From a virus (Duplodnaviria > Caudoviricetes): a DNA stretch of 64,000 bases. Position numbers and translations under genes: made by a program. The notes under the pieces were generated by a model. The model did not search any database and was not told where the DNA came from. It worked only from the letters and a program-made list of their open reading frames with translations. Location of the stretch: the IMG/VR virus record IMGVR_UViG_3300008259_002461, one strand, 5' to 3'. Shown here piece after piece: positions 305 through 24,711 of this stretch (position 1 is its first letter; every line of letters starts with the position of its first letter).

Positions 305-688
305 ATGCCTAAAGCAAATTATGATCGTTTCGCCAGCTTTGATCTCAACGAAGCCTGTGATCACTTTGACTGTACCGATCAGAAAGCCTGGAAGAAGATC
401 CGTCCATTCATCGTAGCAGACGGAACAGACTACGAGACTGTGATGACAGAAGCCTTTGACTTCTACGATATCTCTGAAGAAGAGTTTGAAGCATTTGACG
501 CAGGTGTCAAGTATGCCCTGAGCAAGATGAACATTGCCTTTGAAAAGGCAGGCGTGGAGCTTCAGATATGTGAAGTAGACTTGGTAGATGCCCAGGGCTT
601 TATGATGGTTCGTTGCGATGACGAGCCCGAGGACTTCGTTAAGCGAGCCCTTAAGAAGCCCGTCCAGCAGGTAGACAGCTGGGTATAA
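305..688 (+). CDS. hypothetical early protein (127 aa, acidic)
   Basis: ORF with AAGGAG RBS directly behind a consensus promoter. Confidence 0.75.
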   Translation: MPKANYDRFASFDLNEACDHFDCTDQKAWKKIRPFIVADGTDYETVMTEAFDFYDISEEEFEAFDAGVKYALSKMNIAFEKAGVELQICEVDLVDAQGFMMVRCDDEPEDFVKRALKKPVQQVDSWV

Positions 689-727
689 GTGTGGCATAAA
701 AACAACACTAAAACGGCTAGAAAAAGG

Positions 728-756
728 TTGACAACCCTAGCCCAATTTGCTATACT
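728..756 (+). promoter_or_regulatory. sigma70-type early promoter
   Basis: TTGACA(728-733)-17 nt-TATACT(751-756) with TGn extension, AAGGAG RBS downstream. Confidence 0.9.
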
Positions 757-786
757 ATAGGCTAAGTTAAACAAAAGGAGCGACAC

Positions 787-1134
787 ATGACAGTAGAAAC
801 TTTCAACGCAGAACTAGTCCAAGACGCATGCAACCAAGCCCAACTGGCTGCTCGTAAAGCCGCTAAGGCATTCTACGATCAATATGGCGATCGTGACGCC
901 TGTGGCTTTGCTTGGGTAGATGTATACGGTGTTCGTTCAAACAGCCGCTTGGGCAAGACACTTCAGACGTTTGGCTTCCGCAAGAGCTACACAGGATCCT
1001 TGCAGTTATGGAACCCAAGTGGTGCAGGTGTGCAGAGTGTTAGTGTACTAGAAGCTGGCGCTGAAGCATATGCAAAGGTGCTCAAAGAGCAGTTGGGCTT
1101 AGAGAAGTGCTATGCAGGTAGCCGCTTAGATTGA
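787..1134 (+). CDS. conserved phage hypothetical protein (CGFAWV motif)
   Basis: ORF with promoter and RBS. The DACGFAWV...EAGAEAYAKVL pattern is typical of a phage early hypothetical family. Confidence 0.75.
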   Translation: MTVETFNAELVQDACNQAQLAARKAAKAFYDQYGDRDACGFAWVDVYGVRSNSRLGKTLQTFGFRKSYTGSLQLWNPSGAGVQSVSVLEAGAEAYAKVLKEQLGLEKCYAGSRLD

Positions 1135-1145
1135 TTAAAAAGAGG

Positions 1146-1174
1146 TTGACAGGGCACCCAAAGCCCTGTATAAT
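1146..1174 (+). promoter_or_regulatory. sigma70-type early promoter with internal inverted repeat
   Basis: TTGACA(1146-1151)-17 nt-TATAAT(1169-1174). ACAGGGC(1149-1155) and GCCCTGT(1163-1169) form an inverted repeat. Confidence 0.9.
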
Positions 1175-1206
1175 CATTACATGTTCAACAGTAAGAGGGT
1201 ACACAA

Positions 1207-1476
1207 ATGAAAGCACTAGAGAACTTTATTGCACAGAAGAATCATTGGAACAGCTTCTTCAAGGGCACACAGTATGAGATCACTACAGCAAAGGGCCGTC
1301 AGGCTGTAGCGGATATGATTGACTCAGCACTGAGCCCAGAGAACTTAACCTGTGATGGTGAGCTGCCTAGAGCAGAAGTTAATCGTCGCTACAAAGAACT
1401 AATGACTGCGGCCAAGCAGTTGAAGAAGCTGGACCCAGCTGTTACGTTCTACGAGTACGATGCGGAGGTAGCGTAA
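1207..1476 (+). CDS. hypothetical early protein (89 aa)
   Basis: ORF behind promoter with GAGGG RBS; stop overlaps the next start (TAATG). Confidence 0.75.
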   Translation: MKALENFIAQKNHWNSFFKGTQYEITTAKGRQAVADMIDSALSPENLTCDGELPRAEVNRRYKELMTAAKQLKKLDPAVTFYEYDAEVA

Positions 1477-1670
1477 TGGGTACGCCTTTGTATATGGATA
1501 TGAGCTGTGCTGTGCGCTTGGTGCAGGAGTATGCAGAGATACACACAGCAGGCGATGTGCTGGCTGCACTACAGGACATGGAGTGCTGTTACGATGACTT
1601 GGACAAAGAGGACAGGGTAGCCTACAGCATGTTCATGGCAGCAGGGCGCAAGATGTTTGCTCCGGCGTAA
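1476..1670 (+). CDS. hypothetical early protein (64 aa)
   Basis: GGAGG RBS and TAATG coupling to the upstream ORF. Confidence 0.7.
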   Translation: MGTPLYMDMSCAVRLVQEYAEIHTAGDVLAALQDMECCYDDLDKEDRVAYSMFMAAGRKMFAPA

Positions 1671-1699
1671 GAGATATATAGATATAGCTGTATAGTTTT

Positions 1700-1757
1700 A
1701 TCCCCCAGTCACTGGCCCTGCAACACGCTTGGGATCCTCACTGGGGGATTTCTTTTG
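1700..1757 (+). terminator. long stem-loop / likely intrinsic terminator ending the early cluster
   Basis: ATCCCCCAGT(1700-1709) pairs with ACTGGGGGAT(1740-1749); 30-nt loop; followed by TTCTTTT. Confidence 0.55.
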
Positions 1758-1993
1758 AAAAATATTTCGACGGTCGGGGCATAGAAAATAAAAAAAATTT
1801 CTCGAGGGGTGGGGGGCTTATATATTAAAAGTGTTGCTAAAAAGCCACAGTCCTTAAGCCAAATTTTTTACCGCTTTTTAAAAACACACCGAGTCTAAAT
1901 CACCACCTCACTTCTGTAAGTACTTCTATATAAAAAAATGCGCGACCAATTTTTTTACTCACAGGACCCATTTCGGGTACGCTAAGTCTATTC

Positions 1994-2020
1994 AAAGAAA
2001 AAGCCCTACGAATAGAGCTT
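1994..2020 (-). terminator. intrinsic terminator (UUCG loop)
   Basis: Minus strand AAGCTCTA-TTCG-TAGGGCTT followed by TTTCTTT. Confidence 0.75.
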
Positions 2021-2069
2021 AAGGTTGCGGGCATGTCCCGTATAGATGTTCAACAGTGATCAAACTTGA

Positions 2070-2141
2070 TTAGTTTGGTGGATTCTCACAGTGACATAGT
2101 TTTGCTTGGGGTTTGTGATCCAAATACTCTACAGTATACAT
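2070..2141 (-). CDS. putative 23-aa peptide MYTVEYLDHKPQAKLCHCENPPN (not in ORF track)
   Basis: GGAGG RBS 5 nt before ATG, TAAATA motif at 2180-2185 upstream, UUCG terminator downstream. Confidence 0.4.
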   Translation of the reverse strand: MYTVEYLDHKPQAKLCHCENPPN

Positions 2142-2284
2142 AGTAACCTCCAATACACAGTTCTAGTTCTGTGTACAAGTATTTACAATAAATCTATACA
2201 TTCTTGCTTGATATAGGCCACATCTACTCTCAGTAAAAACGCTAAGTACTTCCCTAAATTTTTTTGCGCAGTATTTTTTTTTGA

Positions 2285-5506: not shown

Positions 5507-6037
5507 ATGAACAAATTATTATCTGAACAATATCGCAAGGTACTAGAACAGGAACACGCTGACTCCGAGTGGGGAGTCACTGGGTGGGGCCAAGCACCTC
5601 ACGTACACAAGATCATGGCGCAAGAAGGTCTGGGTACACTACTGGACTATGGTAGTGGTCATGGTAGACTAGGACATTGGTTTGCTAAGAACGCACCTGA
5701 AATAGATCTAAGAGAATATGAACCGGGAATACCCGAACGTGCTGCTATGCCTAACCCTGCTGAGATGGTGGCTTGCATAGATGTAATGGAACACATAGAG
5801 CCAGAGTGTGTGATTGCTGTGCTGGATCATATCCAAAGTTTAGCACAGCGTAGAGTCTATTTTAACATCAGTATGCGACTTGCTGGCCGAATTCTTAATG
5901 ATGGGCGTAACGCACATCTAACTATACAACCTCAAAAATGGTGGACAGCTCTGCTTAGGGAACGCTGGAATGAAACTGGTTTTTCTCTAGCTAAAGATAA
6001 AACCAATCTTACTTGGATAGGCTCATTCCGAGCCTAG
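5507..6037 (+). CDS. class I SAM-dependent methyltransferase
   Basis: LLDYGSGHG motif I; CIDVMEHI motif. Confidence 0.85.
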   Translation: MNKLLSEQYRKVLEQEHADSEWGVTGWGQAPHVHKIMAQEGLGTLLDYGSGHGRLGHWFAKNAPEIDLREYEPGIPERAAMPNPAEMVACIDVMEHIEPECVIAVLDHIQSLAQRRVYFNISMRLAGRILNDGRNAHLTIQPQKWWTALLRERWNETGFSLAKDKTNLTWIGSFRA

Positions 6038-7441
6038 GTTATTTAAGAACTGTCGCAGTTTAGTTGAGTCTACATCAGCTTTGATTTTTGGTGCCGCTAC
6101 ACCTTCATCGGGTGCTTCAGCAATAACACCTGCGCTCTTACGCTGTAGTGCAGCCACAATAGAACTAGCTGAGCCATTGCTTGATGATTGCGATCCAGAC
6201 TCATCCTGTTCGCAGTCTATAATACGCAGTGTGTCTACATCAAACTCTAGATCAACCTTAGATCCTACACCACTTGATGAACGTGTCTTCATAAGCTGAA
6301 TCTGATAACGTCCACGTTCACGCATAGCACGACTTGTAAAGATACCAATCACATTGTCTGCTGTTTGAATCTTAGATAAGCCACCGCTGATCATGCTGTG
6401 ATCAAATTCAATTTCTTCAACGGCACTACGATTCAACTGCGATGCTGTTACAAATACTGTGCGCAGTTCCATAGCCAAGTTGCGCAGTTCTTCTGACACA
6501 TACTTGTCCTTGATAAACAAGTTCTCTGCACTTACCTTAACACCATTGGGCATCAGCAAGTCCAAATAGTCAATTAGTAGTACGTCAATTCTGCGATTGG
6601 TCTTGATCTCATACTCTTTAACATATGAACGTATGTCGTTGGGTGTCTTGCCTGATGGCATGTACTTGACTTGAAACGCACCGCTCTTCTTACCAATCAT
6701 CTTAACCTTCATTTCAACATCGTCAATGTTCTTAAAGATGTCTCGAGTAGTAACGCCTGTGATCATACTGTCCACACGCATACTGACCAAGTTCTCTGAA
6801 AGTTCGAATGTTAAGTACAGCACATTGAGTCCTGCCTGCGCCCAGTTAACACCAAGGTTAGCCAAGAACAAACTCTTACCTGCACCCGAACCGCCTGCAA
6901 AGATATTCAACTCACCTCTGTTGAATCCGCCAAACAGTTTCTTGTCAAGACTGGCCCAGCCTGTGCTCACTTGTCCGTTCTTGTCTTTGATGGCCTCTAG
7001 TCGACTTCTAGGATCAGCAAAGTAGTCAGTGCCCAGATCTTTCTGAAGTCCAATCTGTACAGCCTTCTTAACTAGATCTTCTACAGGACCATATTCGCCC
7101 TTTTCAAGTAGGTCTGCGCTTTTAAGGATTGCGGCTTCTAGTGCTTTGTGTCTGCTAAAGGTTTCGAACTCTACGAGTAACCAATCATAGTGTTCCTCAC
7201 GGAGTTCACCTGGATGGTGCAGATCTGTTTTCGCTGCCGCATTGATCATGTCAAAGGTTGGCATGGCGTTGTGTTCTGTAACATAGTCGTTCAAAAACTT
7301 AGCCGCGGACTGCAACCTTCTATCAAAAAATTCTGGATTAAAAACTGTTTGACAACGGATAAAGCTCTCAGCATCCATCATCATCATTTCTAGATATACT
7401 TTTTGTATATCGTAACTGTAGTCTGTATTTTGTCTAGTCAT
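6023..7441 (-). CDS. gp41: replicative DNA helicase (T4 gp41/DnaB-like)
   Basis: Walker A GGSGAGKS, Walker B LLIDYLDL, TASQLNR. Start placed at MTRQ (7441), 6 nt after TATACT. Confidence 0.93.
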   Translation of the reverse strand: MTRQNTDYSYDIQKVYLEMMMMDAESFIRCQTVFNPEFFDRRLQSAAKFLNDYVTEHNAMPTFDMINAAAKTDLHHPGELREEHYDWLLVEFETFSRHKALEAAILKSADLLEKGEYGPVEDLVKKAVQIGLQKDLGTDYFADPRSRLEAIKDKNGQVSTGWASLDKKLFGGFNRGELNIFAGGSGAGKSLFLANLGVNWAQAGLNVLYLTFELSENLVSMRVDSMITGVTTRDIFKNIDDVEMKVKMIGKKSGAFQVKYMPSGKTPNDIRSYVKEYEIKTNRRIDVLLIDYLDLLMPNGVKVSAENLFIKDKYVSEELRNLAMELRTVFVTASQLNRSAVEEIEFDHSMISGGLSKIQTADNVIGIFTSRAMRERGRYQIQLMKTRSSSGVGSKVDLEFDVDTLRIIDCEQDESGSQSSSNGSASSIVAALQRKSAGVIAEAPDEGVAAPKIKADVDSTKLRQFLNNLGSE

Positions 7442-7445
7442 TGTA

Positions 7446-8930
7446 TTAGTATACACTCACTCCGTAGTGTAGAGCAAATTCTTTTGCGTCATTTTCATTA
7501 TTAACCATTGGCTTGCCTTTGATATTGAGACTGGTGTTCAATAACATTGGACAGCCTGTGAGTTTGTACCATTCTTCTAGTAAAGATCTAAGTCCCGGAT
7601 TGTCTTGCTGAGTTACCGTTTGTACTCTACTGGTGCCGTCTGCATGCACAATAGCAGGATACAGATCTGGACGCTTGCAACGTGCTGTGAATTGCATGTA
7701 AGGCCCTACAGGCCCGTCAAAATATTCATGGGCATGTTCTGCTAATATCACAGGTGCAAACGGTCTAAACTTTTGTCTTTGCTTGATAGCGTTTACTCTA
7801 TCTTTAATGTCTGCGCCACGAGGGTCAGCAAACAAACTGCGGTTACCAAGAGCACGAGGGCCATACTCGGCCTTGCCATTTGCAACACCAACAATGCCGG
7901 TTGCTTTAAGTTCTGTAATAAGTTTTTTAACAGGGTATTCTCCTTCTATTTCATAACCTAGATAAGGTCCAGGCCAAGCTATCCAATTGTTTTGTTTAGC
8001 TAATACTGCGCCCACTGCGCTGCCTGCATCGCCCGGATTAGGCATGATCCAAACATTGTCAAAGTAATTGTAGGCTAAATGATTGGCTGCACAATTTAGA
8101 GCACATCCGCCCATTAGAACTAGATTCTTGCTAGGAGTTCTTGCGGCGGCCCAGCGTAGTATATTATCTAACACTTCTTCATAGACTCTCTGCGTTGCGG
8201 CTGCTATGTCATACATGTCCTGTTCTGTAGTCAGTTCAGGACGCCATTCTTTACAGCCTTTGTGAAAGTTTTGTGTAAAGTGTACAAAGGGATACTCGTC
8301 CTCTTTAGGAAAAAGTTCGTCCTCAAAATTAATAACGACCATTCTGCGTACTTCGTTGTAGAATCTATTTGAGTCACCGTAAGCAGCCATACCCATGAGA
8401 ATATATTCTTCTTCATTGGGTTTAAGTCCTATTCTTTGAGTCATTGCCGAATACCACAGTCCTACTGAATGCGGATACCCCTGCGTTAGAACTTTCTTAA
8501 GAACCCTGCCCTTTGCCTTCCATACTGTGAGGGTTTCCCATTCTCCAATGCTGTCCACACATACCACAGTAGCGTCCCTAAAGCCGCTAGTATAATAGCC
8601 AGCGGCAGCATGACTATGATGGTGATCAACATAGCTGATAGGAACGTTAATCCCAAAATTACTAAGATACTTTTTAATATTATTTTCTGCATAATTCCAT
8701 CCTTGTCCGGCAAAGAATTGCCTAAATGTTTTCTTTAAAGGACGCTCATACCAAACAACATTATCAGGCAGTCCATATTTTTTTGCTGCATTAATTAATT
8801 CGTGATTGAGATGCGGATCATTTTTAATTCCGCTGTATCGTTCCGCTTGACTAGCAAACACCAGATTGTTGTCATTGAACACAGCCAAAGCTGCATCGTG
8901 ACTGTTAGCACTTATACCCCATGTAATCAT
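7446..8930 (-). CDS. carbamoyltransferase (NodU/CmcH family)
   Basis: SHDAA, QAERYS, HHxSHAAAG, DSIGE, GGCALNC, GDAGSAVG, EYGPRALGNRS, FRPFAP, LLNTSLN motifs. Confidence 0.95.
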   Translation of the reverse strand: MITWGISANSHDAALAVFNDNNLVFASQAERYSGIKNDPHLNHELINAAKKYGLPDNVVWYERPLKKTFRQFFAGQGWNYAENNIKKYLSNFGINVPISYVDHHHSHAAAGYYTSGFRDATVVCVDSIGEWETLTVWKAKGRVLKKVLTQGYPHSVGLWYSAMTQRIGLKPNEEEYILMGMAAYGDSNRFYNEVRRMVVINFEDELFPKEDEYPFVHFTQNFHKGCKEWRPELTTEQDMYDIAAATQRVYEEVLDNILRWAAARTPSKNLVLMGGCALNCAANHLAYNYFDNVWIMPNPGDAGSAVGAVLAKQNNWIAWPGPYLGYEIEGEYPVKKLITELKATGIVGVANGKAEYGPRALGNRSLFADPRGADIKDRVNAIKQRQKFRPFAPVILAEHAHEYFDGPVGPYMQFTARCKRPDLYPAIVHADGTSRVQTVTQQDNPGLRSLLEEWYKLTGCPMLLNTSLNIKGKPMVNNENDAKEFALHYGVSVY

Positions 8931-9037
8931 TTGTATATGAACGGATCCCGTTTACGTAGTTCTTTTAATCTTTTACGTGTTTGTAATTTTCGATAAGGCA
9001 ACATTATAAAGTGCCAAATAATTTTTAATAAAACCAT
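8927..9037 (-). CDS. 36-aa basic peptide (…RKRDPFIYK), not in ORF track
   Basis: Translates MVLLKIIWHFIMLPYRKLQTRKRLKELRKRDPFIYK. Its stop overlaps the carbamoyltransferase ATG (ATGA) and it fills the primase-carbamoyltransferase gap. Confidence 0.65.
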   Translation of the reverse strand: MVLLKIIWHFIMLPYRKLQTRKRLKELRKRDPFIYK

Positions 9038-10020
9038 TTTTTTGCTCTCAGTCTAATTTTTAATGGAGATGTTTCTGCTGCGGTCACAATGCTGTATAGA
9101 GTATATAGTTTTCCATATTCCAGCACAGCATCATTCACATCTTTAATACCCGGCTTCCACTCCGGCATGCTTACTCCCCAACCGTATTCGATCGCTTGTT
9201 CTACTAATTTGCTACCTGCCTGATCTCGGTCTGGGAGAACTATTATATCTTTATTTAATCTGTTAATTAACAGTGCCTGTTGATCTTTGATTTCACTGCC
9301 CAATAGTGCAATGCCGTCAATGTGGATAGCATCTATAGGGCCTTCTGTTAGGATACAAAATGCTTTGTCGTATCCTTGGCTATCTAAGTTGAATACATAG
9401 CCAGGCTGTTGCTCACTTAAATATTTTGGATTTTTGTTAGGTTGAATAGTTCTAGCTGTCCAACCTACAATAGCATCTTCGTAATAGAACGGTACTATCA
9501 ATCGATCTCTATAACCCATACTAGGACTCCAATAAAACTTGTAGTCTTCAAGATATAGATTTCGGCTCTGCATATATGCAACTACATCTGTTAAATGTTT
9601 ACTTACTGAATTAGATGCAGTAAGATAATCTGCAATATTAACAGCATCGTCAGGCAAAGGTACTGCATGAAATACCGGTATGTTAACTAATTTTTGTTGA
9701 ACATTTATGCCTTCATTTTCTTGCATAACTGCAATAGCTAATTTGTTAATGGTATCATCGGGTACGCCTAACCAAACTAATAACCGTCGAAGGCCTTTGC
9801 TTACATTGCGACCTGGTTGCCAAGACGCTTTGAATCCGCAATTAAAACAATGATAGCTTACTCCGCCATCTGGATTTGCAATTAAACCGCCACGCTGTCG
9901 AGTGTCAGCACCTTGTCCATTATGATGACAACAAGGTGCGTTGAATGACGTCCAACCACTAGGCGTATGCTTACGCTTAGGCGGCAAGAATTGTGTTACA
10001 ACTTCAGCGACTTTACTCAT
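9025..10020 (-). CDS. gp61: DNA primase (T4 gp61-like)
   Basis: N-terminal Zn ribbon (APCCH…HCFNCG) and TOPRIM TEGPIDA…DRDQAG. Confidence 0.9.
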   Translation of the reverse strand: MSKVAEVVTQFLPPKRKHTPSGWTSFNAPCCHHNGQGADTRQRGGLIANPDGGVSYHCFNCGFKASWQPGRNVSKGLRRLLVWLGVPDDTINKLAIAVMQENEGINVQQKLVNIPVFHAVPLPDDAVNIADYLTASNSVSKHLTDVVAYMQSRNLYLEDYKFYWSPSMGYRDRLIVPFYYEDAIVGWTARTIQPNKNPKYLSEQQPGYVFNLDSQGYDKAFCILTEGPIDAIHIDGIALLGSEIKDQQALLINRLNKDIIVLPDRDQAGSKLVEQAIEYGWGVSMPEWKPGIKDVNDAVLEYGKLYTLYSIVTAAETSPLKIRLRAKKWFY

Positions 10021-10054: not shown

Positions 10055-10864
10055 TTAGTTGCGAATTAATACTTTGGTAATTTTTCCTGTAGGATTTGTA
10101 GATGCTTTAAGTCGGACGTAACTAAACACACCGTTAAAGTTTATTGGTACAGGCTCTGACTCAGTTCCGTCAAACGTCAATGTTGCAATATCTGCCCAAT
10201 ACGTTCCAACTTCAATCTGATTATCCAGCGTTGCTTGCACCGTAACAGTGCCTACATATCCGGTTGAGTATACTACTGCTGTGTGTAGTGCTTCGTTACC
10301 ATTTATTGTAGGTTGTGCATCAGATGAGTCAGTAACCCAATAATTGTTATTTTCTATGTGCCAAACTAGCAACTCTTCACTGTTTGCAGGTGCTGGAAAT
10401 GCATCTGAACTTATTTTCATAATACTGCTATTACCAAAATGTTCGTTAGCATATGTTAACGATTTTGCACCAGTGTTGTCAACTAGATAGATACTGTAGT
10501 TTAAAAATTGATCTTTAACATTTAGTAGATCGTTTTCAGTTATAGTGACTGTAAATAATCCCTTATTAGTAATAACTGTACTATCGGTTTCTTGTAGAAC
10601 AATGCAGTCTCTTTCTATTATCATATTTTTGTTTTCGTCAAATGCTACAAACTTAGGAGTAAGTTCTTCAATACTTGTGACGGGCTTTTGCTCAGCATTA
10701 AGCAACTTAAATTGTAAGACATTATCTATGCCTTTGTATACTTGTATTTGTCTTTGATACACTGGTCTATACTCCGTAACGAAAGCCCTCTCTAGCCGAG
10801 TGGGGTCCACATTGGCTATGATATTGATTCTATTATTGACTAAATATCTTGGGGTAAACTGCAT
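10055..10864 (-). CDS. hypothetical, probably late/virion beta-rich protein
   Basis: 269-aa ORF with TAAATA 4 nt upstream; beta-strand-rich, BppU-like N-half. Confidence 0.7.
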   Translation of the reverse strand: MQFTPRYLVNNRINIIANVDPTRLERAFVTEYRPVYQRQIQVYKGIDNVLQFKLLNAEQKPVTSIEELTPKFVAFDENKNMIIERDCIVLQETDSTVITNKGLFTVTITENDLLNVKDQFLNYSIYLVDNTGAKSLTYANEHFGNSSIMKISSDAFPAPANSEELLVWHIENNNYWVTDSSDAQPTINGNEALHTAVVYSTGYVGTVTVQATLDNQIEVGTYWADIATLTFDGTESEPVPINFNGVFSYVRLKASTNPTGKITKVLIRN

Positions 10865-10882: not shown

Positions 10883-11254
10883 ATGCTAACTAAAGATATA
10901 CAAGAAAACTTTCCATTTATAAGCGTTGTTAATTACGGCGGCAACGAATACGTTGGTATTATAATTAATCAAGACCAGTATGTAACGTCTATGTACGTTT
11001 ACACGTCAATTCGTTCTGTTGAAGAAAAACAACAGTTTATTGAATTAGGCGAAGCATGGTGGTGGGAATCAAATCGTATGATTCCTATTAATATATTTCT
11101 CAGACAGGAAATGGATGCGTTTCGTTATTCATTAATGACTATGAATACTAAAGATGTTAGGGTAACAATAGGACCCTGTGTTAATCTTAATAATCTAACA
11201 CTAAAGCGAGTAAAGCGCAAAAACGTACAGTTAGTTAGGCGTCCGAAGCGTTAA
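10883..11254 (+). CDS. conserved hypothetical protein
   Basis: 123-aa ORF (WWWESNRMIPINIFL); TAAATA at 10841-10846. Confidence 0.7.
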   Translation: MLTKDIQENFPFISVVNYGGNEYVGIIINQDQYVTSMYVYTSIRSVEEKQQFIELGEAWWWESNRMIPINIFLRQEMDAFRYSLMTMNTKDVRVTIGPCVNLNNLTLKRVKRKNVQLVRRPKR

Positions 11255-11801
11255 GCTGCTCACACAGTAAATTCATGTGTACAACAACAGCCATTGCATA
11301 ACTTACTGCATGGGCCTTCTTAAAGTAGTATTCATCATTCTCCGGCTTCTTCCAAATCTCCGACATAATTGTCGTCCACGATTTCCCAATCAGATATCGT
11401 TTCGCTGGGCGTATCATAGCTAGGACGGCAGCTAATTGTTCCAGTGAAGTAGGGCAGGTCTTCCTCAGAATTTCCCCATGGCCTGCTAAATGAAATAATA
11501 GATTTACGAATTCGTCTTCCTGCAATAAATTCCATAATGGCTCCTTTTTCATTAAAGCAACTAAATGTTCTTCATCACGAATACTTTTATATATGCTTAC
11601 GTTTAGAAAATCAAGTTTAAAATATCCACGTTCTTCTGCCTCTTTGTAATCTATCGTAGATAGATTATCAATTGGATTGTGTGGAATTTCAGTAACATAG
11701 ACTCCTGTGTTGTGTTTCTTGTTTGAATCAAGTTTAGCAACACGATGTTTTAATTTATCCAAAATTAAAGTTCTGTCAGCAAAGTCTATGTCAATATCCA
11801 T
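11235..11801 (-). CDS. minimal DNA polymerase III alpha (DnaE/family C) palm-fingers fragment
   Basis: DIDIDF, KHNTGVYV, FKLDFL, LAMIRP and YFKKAHAVSYA align in order to DnaE DFDVDF, HAGGVVI, KFDFL, ALFRPG and FNKSHSAAY. Confidence 0.8.
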   Translation of the reverse strand: MDIDIDFADRTLILDKLKHRVAKLDSNKKHNTGVYVTEIPHNPIDNLSTIDYKEAEERGYFKLDFLNVSIYKSIRDEEHLVALMKKEPLWNLLQEDEFVNLLFHLAGHGEILRKTCPTSLEQLAAVLAMIRPAKRYLIGKSWTTIMSEIWKKPENDEYYFKKAHAVSYAMAVVVHMNLLCEQLNASDA

Positions 11802-12214
11802 CAGAGTTTACCTTCAGCCCTAAGTTGTGCTCTAATCTGTGTAGCACTAATGTTATGGATGTCTTCTCCAAGATCGTGCTGAGTAAATGTATAACCAACG
11901 CCTCGGCCATAACTAATATCTACAATGTTAGGAACTAACATTATAATATATTCTTCTCCGTAGGTAAAGCCTGCTTCATTTAGCCCAATAATAATATTGC
12001 TTTTTACTGTTTGAAAATCAAATGGATTGTCGTCTTGCTTGGTTGTGGTTCTGCTTTGTCCCGCATCCTGGCCAACAATACCGCCGACGTCTCGGACCAT
12101 AATGCAGACCTGTCCAGTTTCTAATAGACATTTCTTAAACAGTCCTGTATGACCGGCATGCCAAGGTTGCCAACGGCCTAGCATCTGTGTAGTAGGTTTT
12201 TTTGAATCAAACAT
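11801..12214 (-). CDS. HxGH nucleotidyltransferase (cytidylyl/adenylyltransferase-like)
   Basis: LGRWQPWHAGH signature and C-terminal ISATQIR. Confidence 0.85.
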   Translation of the reverse strand: MFDSKKPTTQMLGRWQPWHAGHTGLFKKCLLETGQVCIMVRDVGGIVGQDAGQSRTTTKQDDNPFDFQTVKSNIIIGLNEAGFTYGEEYIIMLVPNIVDISYGRGVGYTFTQHDLGEDIHNISATQIRAQLRAEGKL

Positions 12215-12413
12215 TATTTCTTTCCCATTTAATTAAGTTCCATATTCTTTCGTGCATATAATACAGTATTGTATTAATAACCATCTGTGTCATTCCAATT
12301 ACACCTGAAATTGCTAAATTACCTGTCAGTAAGTATGCTATTAAAAATGTTGCAGTTGATCCTGTTATTCGCCATGTAACAGTCTTAACAATACTTCTTT
12401 TATTTGTTTCCAT
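12207..12413 (-). CDS. DUF2061-like small membrane protein
   Basis: RSIVKTVTWRITGS…LYYMHERIW pattern. Confidence 0.8.
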   Translation of the reverse strand: METNKRSIVKTVTWRITGSTATFLIAYLLTGNLAISGVIGMTQMVINTILYYMHERIWNLIKWERNNV

Positions 12414-12825
12414 TTTTCATGTACGCTTTTACAACTTCCATTAGCTGTAGGTGTGTGTCTGTAAACCATTTGCTAACGTGATAGTTGCAATGATTAGGTT
12501 TTTCAAACATCTTATTAGTATCTTCATATCTACCCTTTTCAATAGTGTCCATCCATACAGTAAAGTCTGCATTGAATTCTTTGCGAGCGTTCTCAGTAGG
12601 ACATACAAAATCTGCTACAGCAATCTTGCCCGCCTTGACTACACCGTCTGCTAAAAATTTCATTCGCATAGCTTGCCGCATACGGCCTTCGGGACTAAAA
12701 TCCCAATCGTCGTATTCTGTTCGAACAGCATCGGCATTGAGCCATATACCGCCAATTAATTGTGCGAATGGTTCTGCAAGGGTGCTTTTACCGCTGCCTG
12801 GCAAACCAAAAATTAATATTTTCAT
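12400..12825 (-). CDS. cysC: adenylylsulfate (APS) kinase-like P-loop kinase, short form
   Basis: GLPGSGKSTLA, LNADAVR, AVADFVCP, KMFEKP. Confidence 0.75.
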   Translation of the reverse strand: MKILIFGLPGSGKSTLAEPFAQLIGGIWLNADAVRTEYDDWDFSPEGRMRQAMRMKFLADGVVKAGKIAVADFVCPTENARKEFNADFTVWMDTIEKGRYEDTNKMFEKPNHCNYHVSKWFTDTHLQLMEVVKAYMKNGNK

Positions 12826-15135: not shown

Positions 15136-16599
15136 TTAGTTCCAGTCAATTTTTTCTATAGTAAATGGGTATTGGGCTTCTTTATAAAACTTTTTTCTTT
15201 CTGTCAAGTGTTTCTTCGCATACTTGCAGCTCGATGTGATGTCCCAGATTTGTACGAAGTCTTTGTCTTCAGCTTTTCGCACACCTCGTCCAATACTTTG
15301 GATAACTCTAACAAAGCTCTTTCCGGGCTCCAAAAGAACCAAATTAAAAATACGAGGAATATTAATACCCACAGCGGCCACACCATAAGTCGCCACAATA
15401 ACCTTATCAGTAGATTCTTTAATTTCGTCATAATGTTCTTTCCTGTCATTTAATTTTACTCCGCCACTGATAAAAACACTATTAGGTATTAGTTCTACTA
15501 ATTGTTTTCCTGCATCAATTCTATCAACTAGGATCAGCGTATTGCCACTGTCTTTAATTTTAGTACATAGTTTGGCAATATAAGCTATTCTGTCTTTGTC
15601 TGAGACTAGATATTTGAGCTCGCTTTGATAATCGCGAAACTCTGGTAAATCTATAAGTTGACAAATATTCACATGGCACTGTGCTAGTACGCCTTTGTCT
15701 TGTAGTTCTTTTGCTGTAATCTGCCCTATCACTGGGCCAATACTAGCATGCAGTGATTCAAATTCAAATTTTTCTTTAGGCACTGTGCCGGTTAATCCCC
15801 AGCGAATAGGTGCATTACGTAGATTGCGTGTAAGTAAGTTTTTAAGAACTTCTGCTTTAGCTTGATGAACTTCGTCAATAATTACACAGCTTACACCTTC
15901 TAAGAATTCTGCTAGTCCTAGAACGCCACTGCCGTCTTTAAATTTCTTATCTAATATGTTTAGACTTTGCCATGTGCATATAGTATGTGTCTTGCCTAAT
16001 TCTTTTCTATCACCAAAGTATACCCCAACATTAAGACCGCAGTTCTTATAGTCTTCTTCTGTTTGTGTTACAAGACTCTTGTTAGGTACAATTACTAAAC
16101 TACGTCCATAAGGTTCAACCAAGTGACTTAATGTTGCTGTAGTAATAGTTTTGCCTGCACCTGTTGCAATCTGTTGCAAACTCTGCGGATTGGCAAGAAA
16201 ACTGTTAATTGCTTCTACTTGATAGTCTCTTAAAACTATTGGTTGACCTGCGGCAGGATGACCTACTGGCCAGCACACATTTTGATCGGCCCAATAATTT
16301 TCAGTTACTGGTTCAAAATTAAGTGCTATAGTTTGTCTTAGGTCTTCAATGTGGGCAATTTCAACGCCGCTGTTATTCAATATTTCTAATATAGTTTCTA
16401 GATGATTAACGTATCCAGTACCGCCTATACCAAAGAACGCAACTTTGCCGTCCCATCTGCCTAACTTATATTGCGGCATATATCTAGCATAGGGTACATC
16501 GAATTTTAAAGCATTAGCTAACTTTCTACGTATTTCAACGGATAAGCCTTCTATTTTTAAATTTACTTCATCTTCGATAATTAATTTACAAGTTGTCAT
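15136..16599 (-). CDS. uvsW: UvsW-like SF2 DNA helicase
   Basis: LRDYQ, ATGAGKT, IIDEVH, LTGT, QSIGRGVR. Confidence 0.92.
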   Translation of the reverse strand: MTTCKLIIEDEVNLKIEGLSVEIRRKLANALKFDVPYARYMPQYKLGRWDGKVAFFGIGGTGYVNHLETILEILNNSGVEIAHIEDLRQTIALNFEPVTENYWADQNVCWPVGHPAAGQPIVLRDYQVEAINSFLANPQSLQQIATGAGKTITTATLSHLVEPYGRSLVIVPNKSLVTQTEEDYKNCGLNVGVYFGDRKELGKTHTICTWQSLNILDKKFKDGSGVLGLAEFLEGVSCVIIDEVHQAKAEVLKNLLTRNLRNAPIRWGLTGTVPKEKFEFESLHASIGPVIGQITAKELQDKGVLAQCHVNICQLIDLPEFRDYQSELKYLVSDKDRIAYIAKLCTKIKDSGNTLILVDRIDAGKQLVELIPNSVFISGGVKLNDRKEHYDEIKESTDKVIVATYGVAAVGINIPRIFNLVLLEPGKSFVRVIQSIGRGVRKAEDKDFVQIWDITSSCKYAKKHLTERKKFYKEAQYPFTIEKIDWN

Positions 16600-17855: not shown

Positions 17856-17884
17856 ATTATAACAGACTATAACCGTTCTGTCAA
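17856..17884 (-). promoter_or_regulatory. sigma70-type promoter for uvsW operon (leaderless geometry)
   Basis: TTGACA-17 nt-TATAAT with TGn; ATG 6 nt downstream. Confidence 0.85.
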
Positions 17885-18709
17885 GTGTTTAAAAGGTAAT
17901 CCCTGTGAAATTTCTTGAATAGTAAATTCTGTCCAAGCTATGTCATTTAACCACTGTTGTCTATCAAACATTTGTGGAACCTCAATATCTGCTAGAGAAT
18001 GATTAGCTACAGGAAACGCTAGACTAGCAGGCCCAGTAAACACTGGGTATCCGTTTATAACAGCACGTATACCGGGATTTGAAGTCCAACTTACAACAGC
18101 ATGAGCATTATCAAATGGTATATCATAATCGTCGTATGTACCTGCTCGTTTTATAGGCATTTGTTTAATTACGTTTTTAAATTTATGTTCTACAGCAAGT
18201 ATTGGACATCTAGGATGGGGCCTAATTACTATTTTTCTATCAGTGTATTTTCTAAGTTCTGCAATAATTTCAGTGAACCATTGACTTGCGTTAGGCATAT
18301 TTTGCCATTGTAAACTTTGATCGTGTTGCCCGCATATCAATATGTGACTGCCCTGTGTTCTCCAAGGTTTTAAATTTAATCCTAATAAATTAGCGCGAGT
18401 ATCATCATTGCCTGTACTAAAGAACGATTCTTTGTTAATTCCGTTTAATCCAACTTTCCAAGTAGTGCCTCGACGTATTCCGCCAACTTCTAATACAATA
18501 ACAGATTTACCAGTTGAGCGAGCAGTATCCCATATCAGTTTATTTTTACTCATTTTGCCGCTCCACAGCACACTCCAAATTACATCTACGTCTGCGTTTG
18601 ATTCGTTTTCGTAGACTGTGTGACCTGCTTTAATTAGACTGTGTTTGAACGCATCAAACACAGGTTTTGAATTAAGAGCTCCGTATTGTGTCCAAAGACT
18701 AAACTTCAT
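17867..18709 (-). CDS. KpsC/KpsS-like (capsule-type GT-B) glycosyltransferase, paralog 1
   Basis: HILICGQH, IRPHPR, AVVSWTSNPGIRAVINGYPVF. Confidence 0.6.
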   Translation of the reverse strand: MKFSLWTQYGALNSKPVFDAFKHSLIKAGHTVYENESNADVDVIWSVLWSGKMSKNKLIWDTARSTGKSVIVLEVGGIRRGTTWKVGLNGINKESFFSTGNDDTRANLLGLNLKPWRTQGSHILICGQHDQSLQWQNMPNASQWFTEIIAELRKYTDRKIVIRPHPRCPILAVEHKFKNVIKQMPIKRAGTYDDYDIPFDNAHAVVSWTSNPGIRAVINGYPVFTGPASLAFPVANHSLADIEVPQMFDRQQWLNDIAWTEFTIQEISQGLPFKHLTERL

Positions 18710-19424
18710 CTTTTAAATTTGTTTCAAGATTTTGAAAATCAATTGCGTCTTTTAAGCCTGCTTTGTAATGAGAAAGATATGGTGAAAGCACACTTCTTGA
18801 TATTGGTGTTTTGTGATCAGCCGGATTTAGGTTAAGCATTTTGTAACCCCTTGCCTCCATAAGATCTACAGTTTTTCCGTAAACTTCTCCGTCGTAGAAT
18901 CTTCTTAAACCAGTAACTCTATCGTGGTAGTATATGTCTTTGTATGTATCACAAAAGTCTTTGTATCCTGGATGTGTAGTATTAAGGATAAAAAAACCTG
19001 TTTCGCAACTGTGATATTTTGTTCCGTCAACAACGTGCCATACTGAGAAATGACTACTTAATACATCGTCCGGAGCAATAAGATCTAATAACTGTGATGG
19101 CATTTCTTCATGAAATACTATGTCAGCGTCTAACCAAATAATTCTGTCTGCTTCCACATTATCCATGGCGTGAATTATACTAAATCCCTTTTTAGCAAAT
19201 GTTTTAACCCTGTCATTAGTATGTCGTTGCTGAAATGAGTTGTATTGGATTCCTAAATTCCATCCCATAGAAGTAATAGTTTTTACTTTAATTTCAAATT
19301 CATCTTCATTATAAACATACAATGGTGTAATAGTTGAAAAATATTTTTTATAACTTTTTAACATAGTTCTACCGCAATGGTTATAATAAGCTTCGTTCAT
19401 ACTTGTAATTGCAGCGTATTTCAT
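18699..19424 (-). CDS. GT-A glycosyltransferase-like (DxD)
   Basis: FAKKGFSI…IIWLDAD…CETGFFILN; GGAG RBS before MKYAA (19424). Confidence 0.7.
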   Translation of the reverse strand: MKYAAITSMNEAYYNHCGRTMLKSYKKYFSTITPLYVYNEDEFEIKVKTITSMGWNLGIQYNSFQQRHTNDRVKTFAKKGFSIIHAMDNVEADRIIWLDADIVFHEEMPSQLLDLIAPDDVLSSHFSVWHVVDGTKYHSCETGFFILNTTHPGYKDFCDTYKDIYYHDRVTGLRRFYDGEVYGKTVDLMEARGYKMLNLNPADHKTPISRSVLSPYLSHYKAGLKDAIDFQNLETNLKDEV

Positions 19425-20236
19425 ATATTTCTCCAATATGGTTCTGTTCGTGGTCTTAGAAGATCTTTAGATAAACTTTTACCTTGTTTTTTTCTTCCGC
19501 CTTTAAGATGATCTAGATATGCACCCCATGGTGAATTAATTAAAGGATGCCCTTCACCCTTTACTAATCCTTTTGCCCAATCTAAAGAATTAATAGTTAT
19601 GCTTTTTAATACTTCGTAGAATACAAAACTATCGTGCCACTCGTCCATTTTAAATATTCCGTTTTCAGCATCTTGATAAACTTTTTCAAATTCAAATAGA
19701 AATTTTCTACCTGCATCACTTTTTAAATTAATACTATATAAACCGCACTCGGGCCACTTACGTTCTCGACCAATATAACATATGTCTTTGTCAACTGGAA
19801 TTAATCTATCTAGTTGTGCTAGAGTAATAGGGCTATGACAAAACATGTCTGCATCCATCCATATTAATACATCTGCATCAGTATTTTCTGCGGCATGAAA
19901 AATTGAATAGACTTTATGACTAAATCTTATTGCGTCCCATTTAAATCCCTTCCAACTATCTTTTCTAGTAGCTTGTCTTTCTTTACTAACATCGCCATTG
20001 GCTTTAGGCACATCTTTCCATTTCTCTTTAAAAGCTACAAGTTTAGGAACTGACGAATGAAGATCATGCAACTGTATTCTATGATGATAATTTGTAATTT
20101 TTGGATTACAGTCTTCTGGATATAACATAAGTGTTACTTCACTTGGCCAGTTAAGCATATAACTGTCAATCATACGCTGTGCATATTGCGTTAATCCTGC
20201 GTTATGAAAGGTAGTTACAACAGCAAATTTTCTCAT
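19421..20236 (-). CDS. GT-A glycosyltransferase-like (DxD)
   Basis: RFSHKVYS…LIWMDAD…ECGLYSIN…WHDSFVF; start MRKF (20236). Confidence 0.72.
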   Translation of the reverse strand: MRKFAVVTTFHNAGLTQYAQRMIDSYMLNWPSEVTLMLYPEDCNPKITNYHHRIQLHDLHSSVPKLVAFKEKWKDVPKANGDVSKERQATRKDSWKGFKWDAIRFSHKVYSIFHAAENTDADVLIWMDADMFCHSPITLAQLDRLIPVDKDICYIGRERKWPECGLYSINLKSDAGRKFLFEFEKVYQDAENGIFKMDEWHDSFVFYEVLKSITINSLDWAKGLVKGEGHPLINSPWGAYLDHLKGGRKKQGKSLSKDLLRPRTEPYWRNI

Positions 20237-21144
20237 AGGTAATCCTTTATTATATTCCAAGCAACACCTGACTGTAAGTCTTTAAAGTTAAAATGACACA
20301 TTGATATCTTTTCAATCCAAGGTTGTCTATCAGGCATTAGCGGATTTTCAATCAATGACAGGTGTGTGTTAGCAATATCAAATGCTTGACTAACTTTAGG
20401 ATTAGGGTCTGTAACAAATACAGGAATGCCTTCAATTGCTGATGCAACTCCTGGACTACTATTGTAGGTTACAGTAGCCCATGCATATTTAAAGTCGTCT
20501 AATATATTTTCATTACTACTAATTTTTACATTAGGATGATTTAATTTAAGGTATTGTCTAGCTCGTTTGTCGCCTGGATGTGCTCTAACAATTATAGGCC
20601 TATCAGTATATTTTCTTAATTCGTTAATAGTTTGATCACACCATTTCATTACATCTAGACCGGCCATGCTCCATCCGCCGTTTCTTTGTAAACAAATTAA
20701 TATATGAGCTCCTAGTAATCTCCAAGGATGCAATTCAAGCCCGATATCTTTTTTAATTTGTTGCCAACGACTGGAGTCAACATTATTAGTAAAATAATTA
20801 CCAGTAGTTGGAAATACATCATCAAGACTAAAACGAAGATATGTGTTAATGTTTTTAGGATCTTTATATAAAAACAAATTACTATCTATTGCAATAGTAT
20901 GTTTACCAATTCTTCTCTGAGATTCTATTATCTTCTTTCTAAACATCAAATGCGGAGCAGTGCCGCTATCTGCGTGTACCCACCCTTGCATCACTGCTAG
21001 GTCAGAAGGCTCCCATGTCATTGTTTCAACTTCTGTACTTAGGCCGTCCTGAACTCCAAGATGAAAATTTCTTAGTACATCTCGTTTTTCTAATTTTGTA
21101 TTGTTAGCAGGTATACCTGCGTAGTAAATTCTAACAGTTTTCAT
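20233..21144 (-). CDS. KpsC/KpsS-like glycosyltransferase, paralog 2
   Basis: HILICLQR, VRAHPG, TVTYNSSPGVASAIEGIPVF. Confidence 0.6.
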   Translation of the reverse strand: MKTVRIYYAGIPANNTKLEKRDVLRNFHLGVQDGLSTEVETMTWEPSDLAVMQGWVHADSGTAPHLMFRKKIIESQRRIGKHTIAIDSNLFLYKDPKNINTYLRFSLDDVFPTTGNYFTNNVDSSRWQQIKKDIGLELHPWRLLGAHILICLQRNGGWSMAGLDVMKWCDQTINELRKYTDRPIIVRAHPGDKRARQYLKLNHPNVKISSNENILDDFKYAWATVTYNSSPGVASAIEGIPVFVTDPNPKVSQAFDIANTHLSLIENPLMPDRQPWIEKISMCHFNFKDLQSGVAWNIIKDYL

Positions 21145-21907
21145 TCATTAGTATTCTATATGCTGTGCCATTTTTTAATTCGTCTAGATGAAATTGGCCA
21201 TATGCTAAATGACATGCCCATTTATATACTTTATCTATATCATGCACTGATGGCGTTTCAATTAGGCTTAAATCTTTATCGCTTACAGGATCGGCCGCTG
21301 TTGGTGCAAGAGTAAATGCTGGCACTCCATATAATACACTTTCTACAGCAGCTATACTTTGATAAGTTACTAGAGCATGACAATTATCTAAATCTTCAAA
21401 TATTGTTTTTGTTAATCGGTGTTGTCTAACTGCTTTGTCTCTGATCACTATAGGACGATCAGTATATTTTTTAATTTCTTCAACAGTATTTTTAACCCAA
21501 ACATCACGATCTATACCATAAAATTTACATGGTTTTTCTGACGGTGTTACTAATAATATATGTTTGCCTCGCTTAGATTTTTCTATAGTATAATCTAATT
21601 TTCTCCAGCGATCGTCTGGTCTATCTATAATTTGTCCATGCTGAACATCATTCTTAACAATGCGATGCCATTGTTTCCAACCATAAGGATTAGATGGAGA
21701 TTTGTAGTTTCCTACATATCCGCTGTCCATAAAATAAAAAGGATGGTTTGTTTCCCAGCACTGGTGTATAAGTTTTCGTTTACCCATACTCCTAATTAAT
21801 ATTGGATTAGAACCAAAGTCTGTGTCATAATCTTGCGTAGGCAAATTTGCACCACGTGCAAACATATTAATATATTCGTCGTCGAGATTTTTACTTAGAC
21901 AAATCAT
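21131..21907 (-). CDS. KpsC/KpsS-like glycosyltransferase, paralog 3
   Basis: HILLVTPS, LVTYQSIAAVESVLYGVPAF; start uncertain (21907 or 21976). Confidence 0.55.
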   Translation of the reverse strand: MICLSKNLDDEYINMFARGANLPTQDYDTDFGSNPILIRSMGKRKLIHQCWETNHPFYFMDSGYVGNYKSPSNPYGWKQWHRIVKNDVQHGQIIDRPDDRWRKLDYTIEKSKRGKHILLVTPSEKPCKFYGIDRDVWVKNTVEEIKKYTDRPIVIRDKAVRQHRLTKTIFEDLDNCHALVTYQSIAAVESVLYGVPAFTLAPTAADPVSDKDLSLIETPSVHDIDKVYKWACHLAYGQFHLDELKNGTAYRILMNENC

Positions 21908-22577
21908 GTTGCTGACAGTGTTCTGTATATACTCGTTCTCTATGCCACTCGTTACAGAAATTTCCTTTGTCGGCAAATTCGTGAAAGCAAGGAGTTCCTA
22001 ATGTATAATGTACTAACTTAGCATTGGGATTATATTCATATTCAATGTCTAGCCAATTCCATTCTTTAGGTAATTCGCCTATGCGGGTTTCATCTAACCA
22101 CGAGAAACGGTGGAGGAAACTGCCTTTGGATCGCTGGATAAATTCAGGGGTAAGTTTCCTGTTGTGAAGGCTAGCACAATTCCACAGAATAACACTAGAC
22201 CAATTTTTTCGAGGATAGTCTTCATTTTTTGCTCCTAAATATTTAACAGGCATTTTAGTTTTGTAGTCGTGTTTGACTACCTGTACATCTTTGTTTTCGT
22301 CTTTTAAAGACCACAGTTCTGCAATGTCGCCACGTACAATCATATCACCGTCGATAAAAATTGCATGCCCTTCCCATTTCATTAAGTACGGTACTAAAAA
22401 TCTTGTGTATATAAAATGATTACTACCGTCTGTATGAGTTTCTGTATAATCTTTAAAAAGATTTAATGCTACAGGAATAATAGCTACAGGCTTAGAGGAA
22501 TTTCTTATAATACTGTTTGCACAGGTATGATAAGCAATAGCTTCCCTAGGATCATAGCCTATAAAAACTGGAATCAT
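21891..22577 (-). CDS. GT8-like glycosyltransferase
   Basis: VFIGYDPRE, FIYTRFLVP, IFIDGDM, KNWSSVILWN, LVHYTLGTP. Confidence 0.85.
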   Translation of the reverse strand: MIPVFIGYDPREAIAYHTCANSIIRNSSKPVAIIPVALNLFKDYTETHTDGSNHFIYTRFLVPYLMKWEGHAIFIDGDMIVRGDIAELWSLKDENKDVQVVKHDYKTKMPVKYLGAKNEDYPRKNWSSVILWNCASLHNRKLTPEFIQRSKGSFLHRFSWLDETRIGELPKEWNWLDIEYEYNPNAKLVHYTLGTPCFHEFADKGNFCNEWHRERVYTEHCQQHDLSK

Positions 22578-23338
22578 TTTCTTTCTATGTCCTCTTCTTC
22601 GCAACGATCGCCGTATTGTATTTCAATAAGTTTTAAAGGTTCATTAGATGGATTACATAATTGATGCCATTCTGTTTTTTTAATATGTAGGCTTTGGTGT
22701 TTATGAAAAACTCCATACAGTTCTTGGTCTGAACTTTTATTAATAGTATAAACTTCTGCTGTTCCTTCTGCTACAAACCAGTGTTCTGCACGATCTTGAT
22801 GTCGCTGCATACTTAAACATTGTCCAGGGTCAACTGTTAATTCTTTAACTTTTACTTCTCTATTGTTTTCGTGTAATATTCGATAATATCCCCATTTGCG
22901 TTCAGTCTTAGGAGCTTTCCATTCTTGCAATATCCACGAGCTAGAGTTCTTTTTATCTTCGCCGCCTACACCAAATACAAATTCTAAATTATTATCAACT
23001 ACATCCATTTCTGGAATGTTCTTTGCTGTTCTATCACCGCCATTAGCAAATATTAATTTTGCATCAGGATAGTGTGCCCGAACTTGATGTATAAAATGTT
23101 TAGCAGATCCGTCTGAATCGTCAAATGTAAAAACTTCGTCGACCATTGACAGATTATTAATAATGCAGAGCCTTTCATTCCATGGCATGAATGCTGCACC
23201 CTTTTTACGCACTAACCACTCATCTGAATTAAGGCCGACTATTAGAACATCGCCAAGAGTTTTTGCTGCTTTAAAGTATGCTATGTGGCCGCTATGAACT
23301 GGATCAAAGCCTCCTGTAACTAACACAATTTTTGTCAT
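22574..23338 (-). CDS. cytidylyltransferase (RfaE/TagD-like) fused to type II mannose-6-phosphate-isomerase cupin
   Basis: N-half TGGFDPVHSGH…GLNSD…NGGDR…KNSSS; C-half RKWGYY…LSMQRHQDRAEHW…IEIQYG. Confidence 0.9.
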   Translation of the reverse strand: MTKIVLVTGGFDPVHSGHIAYFKAAKTLGDVLIVGLNSDEWLVRKKGAAFMPWNERLCIINNLSMVDEVFTFDDSDGSAKHFIHQVRAHYPDAKLIFANGGDRTAKNIPEMDVVDNNLEFVFGVGGEDKKNSSSWILQEWKAPKTERKWGYYRILHENNREVKVKELTVDPGQCLSMQRHQDRAEHWFVAEGTAEVYTINKSSDQELYGVFHKHQSLHIKKTEWHQLCNPSNEPLKLIEIQYGDRCEEEDIERK

Positions 23339-23916
23339 AAGATATTAAATCCTTTATAATTATTCTTCCATGATTCATAGTCTGTCTGAGTAAAATCTAT
23401 AGTGTCTTTTACAAACCATGTTTCAAATATATCCGTTGGACTGTTGCCTACATACACATTTTCAACAGCAACTTTATATCCAACAGCCTGCAAATAATCC
23501 CTTGCTATTTTATCATATTCGCCAGTTGACTGATATGCATCATGTTCAAAAGTTATACATTCAAATGTAAATCCTTCTTCTATAACTTTTTTTAATGCAA
23601 GGAATGTATTATGCGGAGGTTCGATATCGCAACTTAAATATCCAATATTTTTAGTTAGTCCAATTTTTGTAGCTGCTTGACTATAATTGAATGTTAGTGC
23701 GTTATCCCAAAATACTTTATTTTTTCTAGTTGACTTATCCCATTTCTTTTTATGAGTAAGATCTAGTTCTATACTAAATCCTAAAAATTGATGTCCTTCT
23801 AAAAGGAATGTATTGCTCATTCTAGTAGGCGAATTTGCACCAATTTCTATATAAGATTTGTTTTTGCAAATCTGTAATGCAAACCTATCTTGCATTGACT
23901 GACTTCCCTGCTTCAT
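23335..23916 (-). CDS. FkbM-like SAM methyltransferase
   Basis: YIEIGA…SNT…YLSCDIEP…ITFEHD. Confidence 0.7.
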   Translation of the reverse strand: MKQGSQSMQDRFALQICKNKSYIEIGANSPTRMSNTFLLEGHQFLGFSIELDLTHKKKWDKSTRKNKVFWDNALTFNYSQAATKIGLTKNIGYLSCDIEPPHNTFLALKKVIEEGFTFECITFEHDAYQSTGEYDKIARDYLQAVGYKVAVENVYVGNSPTDIFETWFVKDTIDFTQTDYESWKNNYKGFNIL

Positions 23917-24707: not shown

Positions 24708-24711
24708 ATTT

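Follow-up and report, generated by a model that had tools for sequence, protein, structure and literature searches.

The 64,000-nucleotide stretch of Caudoviricetes DNA held as IMG/VR record IMGVR_UViG_3300008259_002461, referred to throughout as the window, carries on its minus strand (11235..11801, stop codon included) an ATG-initiated gene for a protein of 188 amino acids (aa) that belongs to the phrog_11778 family. This protein, here termed the C-half of a split minimal Pol III alpha-like enzyme, is very probably the C-terminal subunit of a two-subunit, intein-free minimal family-C nucleotidyltransferase, likely a short-patch DNA polymerase of the replication fork. Family-C polymerases are the replicases of bacteria, and their origin is still argued. 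The phage enzyme is the smallest natural form of the family-C core, consisting of the nucleotidyltransferase core and one finger element, with an active site shared between two small proteins. Both of these, the C-half and an N-terminal partner (the N-half), are very abundant in metagenomes, have catalytic positions that are under strong selection, and are tied to the phage primosome.

The enzyme as such is already known. A “minimal, split DNA polymerase III alpha” was described in group 2.2 jumbo phages by Iyer, Anantharaman, Krishnan, Burroughs and Aravind (2021; Viruses 13:63, PMC7824862), and both halves are already named in PHROGs and in some Joint Genome Institute (JGI) annotations. A first-pass annotation of the window, made from the letters of the sequence alone, had deduced one half of a split, miniaturized nucleotidyltransferase of this kind and had foretold the C-terminal motif of a partner that it could not see; this deduction proves correct but not new. 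What is added here is a residue-level mapping onto DnaE, the break point of the gene pair, one natural fusion of the two halves, the co-occurrence of both genes in 10 of 10 records, the linkage of the C-half gene to primase and helicase, and the presence of the enzyme in a 141-kb phage.

Homology and Retained Motifs of the C-Half

The likeness of the C-half to DnaE goes beyond chance. Among PHROG profiles, phrog_11778 (“DNA polymerase”) is matched with E 4.7e-64, residues 1-182 of the protein falling on profile positions 7-194 of 197, and a 1190-aa polymerase PHROG is matched weakly. An exhaustive HMMER search provided 419 representative C-half homologues, from which an alignment of 69 was used to score conservation and to build a profile. 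Searched against the PDB, this profile retrieves Pol III alpha chains only (best E 2.2e-5), a direct hhalign comparison of the C-half with Escherichia coli DnaE gives E 3.3e-5, and the DNA_pol3_finger family (PF17657) is matched by 30 of the 69 homologues at E <= 0.01. The AlphaFold2 model of the window protein has a predicted local distance difference test score (pLDDT) of 96.4, and all of its top 15 Foldseek matches are family-C polymerases. When superimposed with VIA-align, 180-185 of the 188 residues are placed on DnaE or PolC chains at Z 9.0-9.5 and a root-mean-square deviation of 3.2-4.3 Å, covering residues 401..784 of E. coli DnaE, 420..811 of Mycobacterium tuberculosis DnaE1, 462..838 of the Taq enzyme, and 972..1358 of PolC, with the best unrelated chain reaching Z 3.3. 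The lack of superposition on the DnaE palm that was named at first pass as grounds for giving up the proposal is therefore not observed. As to its label “PolC-type”, a preference for PolC over DnaE is unsupported, the two being matched equally well at the level of structure.

The five motifs on which the initial reading was built are all present in the translated 188-aa ORF (open reading frame), and each can be assigned to residues of E. coli DnaE, which was read from MG1655 and served as the ruler. On the minus strand, DIDID (residues 2-6; 11784..11798) corresponds to D401/D403/D405, the structural alignment beginning at DnaE residue 401; KHNTG (residues 29-33; 11703..11717) corresponds to K510-H511-A-G-G514; and KLDFL (residues 62-66; 11604..11618) corresponds to K553-F-D555-F-L and supplies the third catalytic Asp. 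These are followed by IRP (residues 130-132; 11406..11414), the counterpart of F638-R639-P640, and by FKKAHAVSY (residues 160-168; 11298..11324), the counterpart of F756-N-K758-S-H760-SAAY. The profile alignment to the PDB likewise pairs K62 and D64 with K553 and D555 of the E. coli protein, R131-P132 with FRPG, and FKKAHA with FNKSHS. Across the 69 aligned homologues D2, D4, D6, K62, D64, R131, and P132 are invariant, and H30, G33, K161, and H164 are nearly so. The C-half holds the second part of the Pol-beta-like palm, including the metal-binding residues D2/D4(/D6) and D64 together with K62, and one helical finger element bearing R131-P132, K161/K162, and H164.

What has been lost can be read from the spacing of the same motifs. 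The DxDxD and K-H-x-x-G motifs are 22 residues apart in the C-half and 104 in E. coli DnaE, so that the thumb is gone and a short turn remains in its place; similarly, R-P and F-x-K-x-H are separated by 28 residues instead of 116, which removes a finger subdomain of ~88 residues. In the nomenclature of Lamers et al. (2006), the retained finger piece would be the “middle finger” and the lost pieces the index, ring, and little fingers. The chain begins at the equivalent of DnaE residue 401 and its last residue, 188, falls at about residue 784 of the 1160 in DnaE, the final ~375 residues being absent. Within the C-half polypeptide there is accordingly no PHP domain, GRGS motif, thumb, OB domain, or clamp-binding domain, just as was stated at first pass, and the tau-binding domain is likewise absent.

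The N-Terminal Partner

A chain that lacks the GRGS loop calls for a second gene, and the first-pass annotation had predicted a short partner carrying GRGS and ending in (F/W)x(R/E)FL. Such a partner is present in the relatives and is missing from the 64-kb window. Exactly one match to PF07733 above the cut-off occurs in each of the 10 large records with a C-half gene that were scanned, namely those of phages 121Q, Ettore, Atu_ph07, SCTP-2, RAS14, and Slickus01 and four large IMG/VR contigs, one of which is a 357.6-kb genome rated 100% complete. Together with the homology and fold of the C-half, this supports the view of the window protein as half of a split, miniaturized family-C nucleotidyltransferase. 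The N-half ORFs of the relatives are 168-184 aa in length, and a distance of 11 to about 208 kb separates them from the gene for the C-half. In metagenomes the N-half forms ~7900 clusters at 90% identity and is about as abundant as the C-half.

The C-terminus of the N-half reads ...GVGRGSS...(W/I/V)(R/N/K)EFL(R/K) and in most copies is followed directly by the stop codon, one copy being six residues longer; G-R-G-S-S is invariant. In E. coli DnaE the corresponding segment, GRGSGAGS...FERFLN at 361-393, continues through PERVSMP into DFDVDF. Comparison of the N-half end and the C-half start with this sequence places the break between the two genes in the 7-residue loop that leads from the GS-loop helix to the first catalytic strand. 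The N-half aligns with DnaE residues 269-393 in hhalign (93% probability); reaching back only to DnaE ~269-279, it does not supply the PHP domain either. A joint MAFFT alignment placed the N-halves on C-half columns and was not used for folding; the N-half was instead folded alone, giving a model of moderate confidence (pLDDT 74.7) in which residues 77-173 are superimposed on DnaE 279-393 at Z 10-11.6. The first ~76 residues of this model have low confidence (pLDDT 53-65) and match nothing.

In the window itself, a six-frame scan for G[RK]G[SA] picked up nothing but a glycine-rich ORF near 63749, a phmmer search with the N-half of 121Q gave a best E of 0.75, and the top match of a maximum-sensitivity hmmsearch with the N-half profile stood at E 1.4. 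As a positive control, the profile of the C-half recovered the C-half ORF at 4e-79. As a separate observation, a GroES-like ORF, assigned by eye, lies two genes from the N-half in both 121Q and the closest complete relative of the window phage, a genome designated G001.

Proposed Association of the Two Halves

A single-chain form of the enzyme exists in nature. The 375-aa protein P0238, encoded at 1066-2193 (+) of a 2.4-kb ENA metagenome contig (L096), is a fusion of an N-half to a C-half in which ...EFIK is connected to DFDID by 10 linker residues and PF07733 spans the junction. Among the best 150 representatives of the exhaustive HMMER search it is the only fused form. A further candidate for a long relative, the 1386-aa protein P0206 from 21 stretches, was dropped; only unrelated Pfam families match it, and it was taken to be repetitive and unrelated.

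Co-folding of the two chains, which the first-pass annotation had put forward as a check, was performed on the N-half and C-half of one relative's genome and passed its controls with a score of 0.91 against 0.00 for the best of three. In calibration, 58 of 80 solved complexes attained this mark, as did 2 of 110 mismatched pairs. Agreement between runs extends to at least 97% of contacts and the partner has a pLDDT of at least 91, the contact being made by N-half residues 134-147, which form the GRGS loop, against C-half residues 1-8. Because solved structures of DnaE and PolC show this contact within a single chain, the pass may reflect likeness to them and not be independent evidence of binding.

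Replication-Associated Gene Order

Pfam scans of the window recognize a T4-type terminase, gp15, a tail sheath protein, UvsW, UvsX/RecA, a gp32-like protein, a Toprim primase, and a gp41/DnaB-type helicase, and the phage is a T4-core myovirus. The C-half gene heads a conserved block within its replication module, the upstream edge of which is marked by the UvsW-type helicase gene (15136..16599, minus strand). Next to the C-half gene lies a small convergent gene (10883..11254, plus strand; 123 aa) that belongs to phrog_11637 (E 3e-33) and is of unknown function, followed on the minus strand by a gene for a 269-aa protein that weakly matches a virion structural protein (10055..10864), the DnaG/Toprim-type primase gene (9025..10020), and, at the end of the block, the gp41/DnaB-type replicative helicase gene (6023..7456). 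The order C-half, phrog_11637 gene, ~270-aa protein, primase, helicase is shared by the window, 121Q, Ettore, Atu_ph07, SCTP-2, and Slickus01, and in G001 it holds up to the primase, at which the examined stretch ends. A carbamoyltransferase gene (7446-8930, minus strand; Carbam_trans_N E 1e-41, Carbam_trans_C E 7e-52) stands between primase and helicase and is an insertion of the window, the two genes being adjacent in 121Q and Ettore. The convergent arrangement of the phrog_11637 gene is kept in 121Q, Ettore, Atu_ph07, SCTP-2, Slickus01, and G001 and hints at some connection, in function or regulation, between it and the C-half gene.

On its other side, the C-half gene is translationally coupled to a three-gene minus-strand cassette (11801-12825) comprising genes for an HxGH nucleotidyltransferase-like protein that matches the C-terminal part of phrog_10255 (11801-12214, directly upstream), a DUF2061 membrane protein (12207-12413), and an APS-kinase-like P-loop protein (12400-12825). 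In G001 the upstream slot is occupied by a peptide-deformylase-like ORF, assigned by eye, and since a different gene is found there the cassette is regarded as variable cargo and the HxGH nucleotidyltransferase-like gene was rejected as a functional partner of the C-half.

A separate family-B polymerase (PolB), for which a search was advised at first pass, is present in all relatives examined, sometimes in two or three pieces, and was not detected by Pfam in the ~40 window ORFs scanned, which included every ORF of more than 400 aa. DNA_pol_B matches are spread over two or three separate frames in Ettore (88.8-92.6 kb), Atu_ph07 (212.3-213.7 kb), and Slickus01 (3.6-5.1 kb; all in record coordinates), suggesting that the PolB genes of several relatives are split or interrupted. 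Alishewanella phage Slickus01 (L101; 141,644 bp) has both halves of the family-C enzyme as well as a two-piece PolB, and because its genome lies well under 200 kb, the jumbo limit, carriage of the split enzyme extends beyond the jumbo phages.

Proposed Function and Alternatives

The mechanism favored here is one in which the two chains would associate non-covalently, without splicing. Assembly must be of this kind since there is no intein, the N-half stopping after EFL(R/K) and the C-half starting with M-D-I-D. The GRGS triphosphate-binding loop of the ~173-aa N-half would pack against the DIDID strand of the C-half, so that the joined halves might rebuild a single Pol-beta-like active site, and the resulting heterodimer of ~360 aa, similar in size to Pol beta, would then transfer nucleotides to a 3'-OH. 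The most likely role for it is that of a short-patch, distributive DNA polymerase at the phage fork, working alongside the family-B replicase, with primer extension, gap filling, and recombination-dependent synthesis as candidate tasks. This role is preferred because of the fixed place of the C-half gene beside those of the primase and the replicative helicase.

Several points weigh against such a polymerase. The relationship of the window C-half to DnaE is reached only through profiles and structure, because Pfam returns zero matches for it up to E 10, leaving it below every threshold, and a single-sequence phmmer search against the PDB returns nothing. The N-half has been found in relatives and not within the window, and in RAS14 the linkage of the C-half gene to primase and helicase is not seen within 5 kb. 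With a PolB already present in these phages, the need for another polymerase is not obvious. The parts that grip the primer-template DNA in DnaE, namely the thumb and the greater part of the fingers, are lost, so that templated synthesis by the heterodimer is not assured and processive template-directed synthesis is in real doubt; in the Taq ternary complex the deleted finger segment presumably also carries arginines that contact the incoming deoxynucleoside triphosphate. Literature searches, including those covering the years after 2021, found no experimental work on the split enzyme.

The same losses can be read in another way, with the split enzyme acting as a non-templated or otherwise specialized nucleotidyltransferase and not as a template-directed polymerase, its tasks being, for example, 3'-end tailing, capping or extension of primers with unusual nucleotides, synthesis of signaling nucleotides, or participation in DNA modification. 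Non-templated transferases make wide use of the Pol-beta-like fold, and the absence of the thumb and of ~88 finger residues, the complete PolB of the relatives, and the translational coupling of the window C-half to a cassette with kinase-like and HxGH nucleotidyltransferase-like genes could all be explained in this way. That cassette, however, is not conserved, G001 having a peptide-deformylase-like ORF in that slot, whereas the link to primase and helicase is, and this conserved position is a mild argument against a non-replicative role such as had been suggested at first pass. The finger motifs that are retained (R-P and FKKSHA) are specific to DnaE and do not extend across the superfamily, and no result favors any particular alternative substrate. 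A specialized transferase is accordingly considered rather improbable.

A related proposal, also unlikely, draws on the gene order: the ~360-aa heterodimer would be neither a second replicase nor a repair polymerase, but an enzyme attached to the primosome together with primase and helicase, serving either as a Pol-alpha-like primer extender or as a non-templated 3'-end transferase. In the Pol-alpha-like variant, RNA primers would be extended into short DNA and then handed off to PolB. If true, either variant would provide the first example of a C-family active site that functions in the absence of the thumb and of most of the fingers and is built across two polypeptides.

That the C-half is instead a catalytically idle fragment, a partnerless decoy or inhibitor of the host Pol III holoenzyme, is very hard to sustain. 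Its small size and the absence of the GRGS loop would fit such a role, but the three Asp residues, K62, and R-P do not vary among 69 homologues that are only 30-60% identical to the window protein, GRGSS is invariant in the N-half, both genes are found together in 10 of 10 records, and a natural fusion of the two exists. The surfaces through which DnaE binds beta, tau, and epsilon are known to reside in its PHP domain and C-terminal domains, and the C-half has none of them.

Integrity and Distribution of the Gene

The C-half ORF is a real and complete gene. The stop codon of the upstream gene overlaps its start ATG by one base (TGATG), and its 3' end overlaps that of the convergent 123-aa gene by 20 nt, so that a frameshifted continuation has no room on either side. 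A protein identical to the window C-half is encoded on at least 23 separately assembled contigs, more than 8000 metagenomic clusters at 90% identity have a C-half length of 185-195 aa, and a word search found no longer relatives. The notion that the ORF is a piece of a full-length dnaE severed by pseudogenization, or by the frameshift or assembly error that the first-pass annotation had raised as a possible undoing of its own reading, is already refuted by these data, which place an unrelated gene against the start codon and a conserved convergent one against the other end, and no point in its favor was found. Members of the C-half family occur in 96 phage records, nearly all of them jumbo. 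The window protein shares at most 52% identity with the copy of any isolated phage and 78% with that of the nearest complete metagenomic genome, a 357.6-kb IMG/VR genome rated 100% complete.

Relationship to Described Polymerases

Bacterial DnaE (2HNH for E. coli, 2HPI/3E0D for Taq, and 5LEW for M. tuberculosis DnaE1) shares with the C-half the Asp triad, K553, R-P, and FNKSH, and with them the second part of the palm and one finger element. It differs in that the C-half has 188 aa instead of ~1160 and begins at the equivalent of D401, the GS loop being located on another polypeptide. The PolC of Geobacillus kaustophilus (3F2B/3F2C) is matched at Z 9.4, with 181-184 residues of the C-half placed on 972..1296/1358, but its DnaQ exonuclease in PHP, N-terminal OB domain, full thumb, and full fingers have no counterpart in the C-half. 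A different kind of split is known from cyanobacterial DnaE (Ssp/Npu), which is encoded by two distant genes with split-intein ends, the halves being spliced to a full-length chain. The phage pair resembles this system in the distance between its genes, but it is intein-free and is divided at a different site.

The closest resemblance is to the enzyme of group 2.2 jumbo phages, from which the window C-half shows no essential difference (Iyer et al., 2021). In both there is a stand-alone C-terminal piece for the binding of Mg2+ and template, and PHP and the remaining Pol III domains are lacking; in the relatives of the window phage, as in the jumbo phages of that group, an N-terminal piece for the binding of nucleoside triphosphates is encoded far away and a family-B polymerase is present alongside (PMC7824862). 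The minimal split enzyme has been proposed as a model of the ancestral family-C form (Iyer et al., 2021; PMC7824862).

Other Genes of the Window

The remainder of the window carries several genes that lie apart from the replication module. A cluster of sugar-nucleotide and glycosyltransferase genes at 17867-26360, occupying both strands, encodes a capsule-synthesis-like protein, two GT8 glycosyltransferases, a fusion of a cytidylyltransferase to a mannose-6-P-isomerase-type cupin, an NAD-dependent epimerase/dehydratase, and a UDP-glucose/GDP-mannose dehydrogenase, and is followed by a gene for a radical-SAM protein at 26357-27964. A GroEL-type chaperonin (Cpn60_TCP1, E 2e-76) is encoded at 50881-52470 (+). 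Toward the end of the window there are three full-length genes of the FAD-dependent tryptophan-halogenase family (PF04820, E 1e-93 to 1e-100), at 54197-55795 (+), 58238-59800 (+), and 61584-63011 (-), which lie within 9 kb of each other, are interleaved with several ORFs of ~190-230 aa, and constitute an unusual cargo for a phage.

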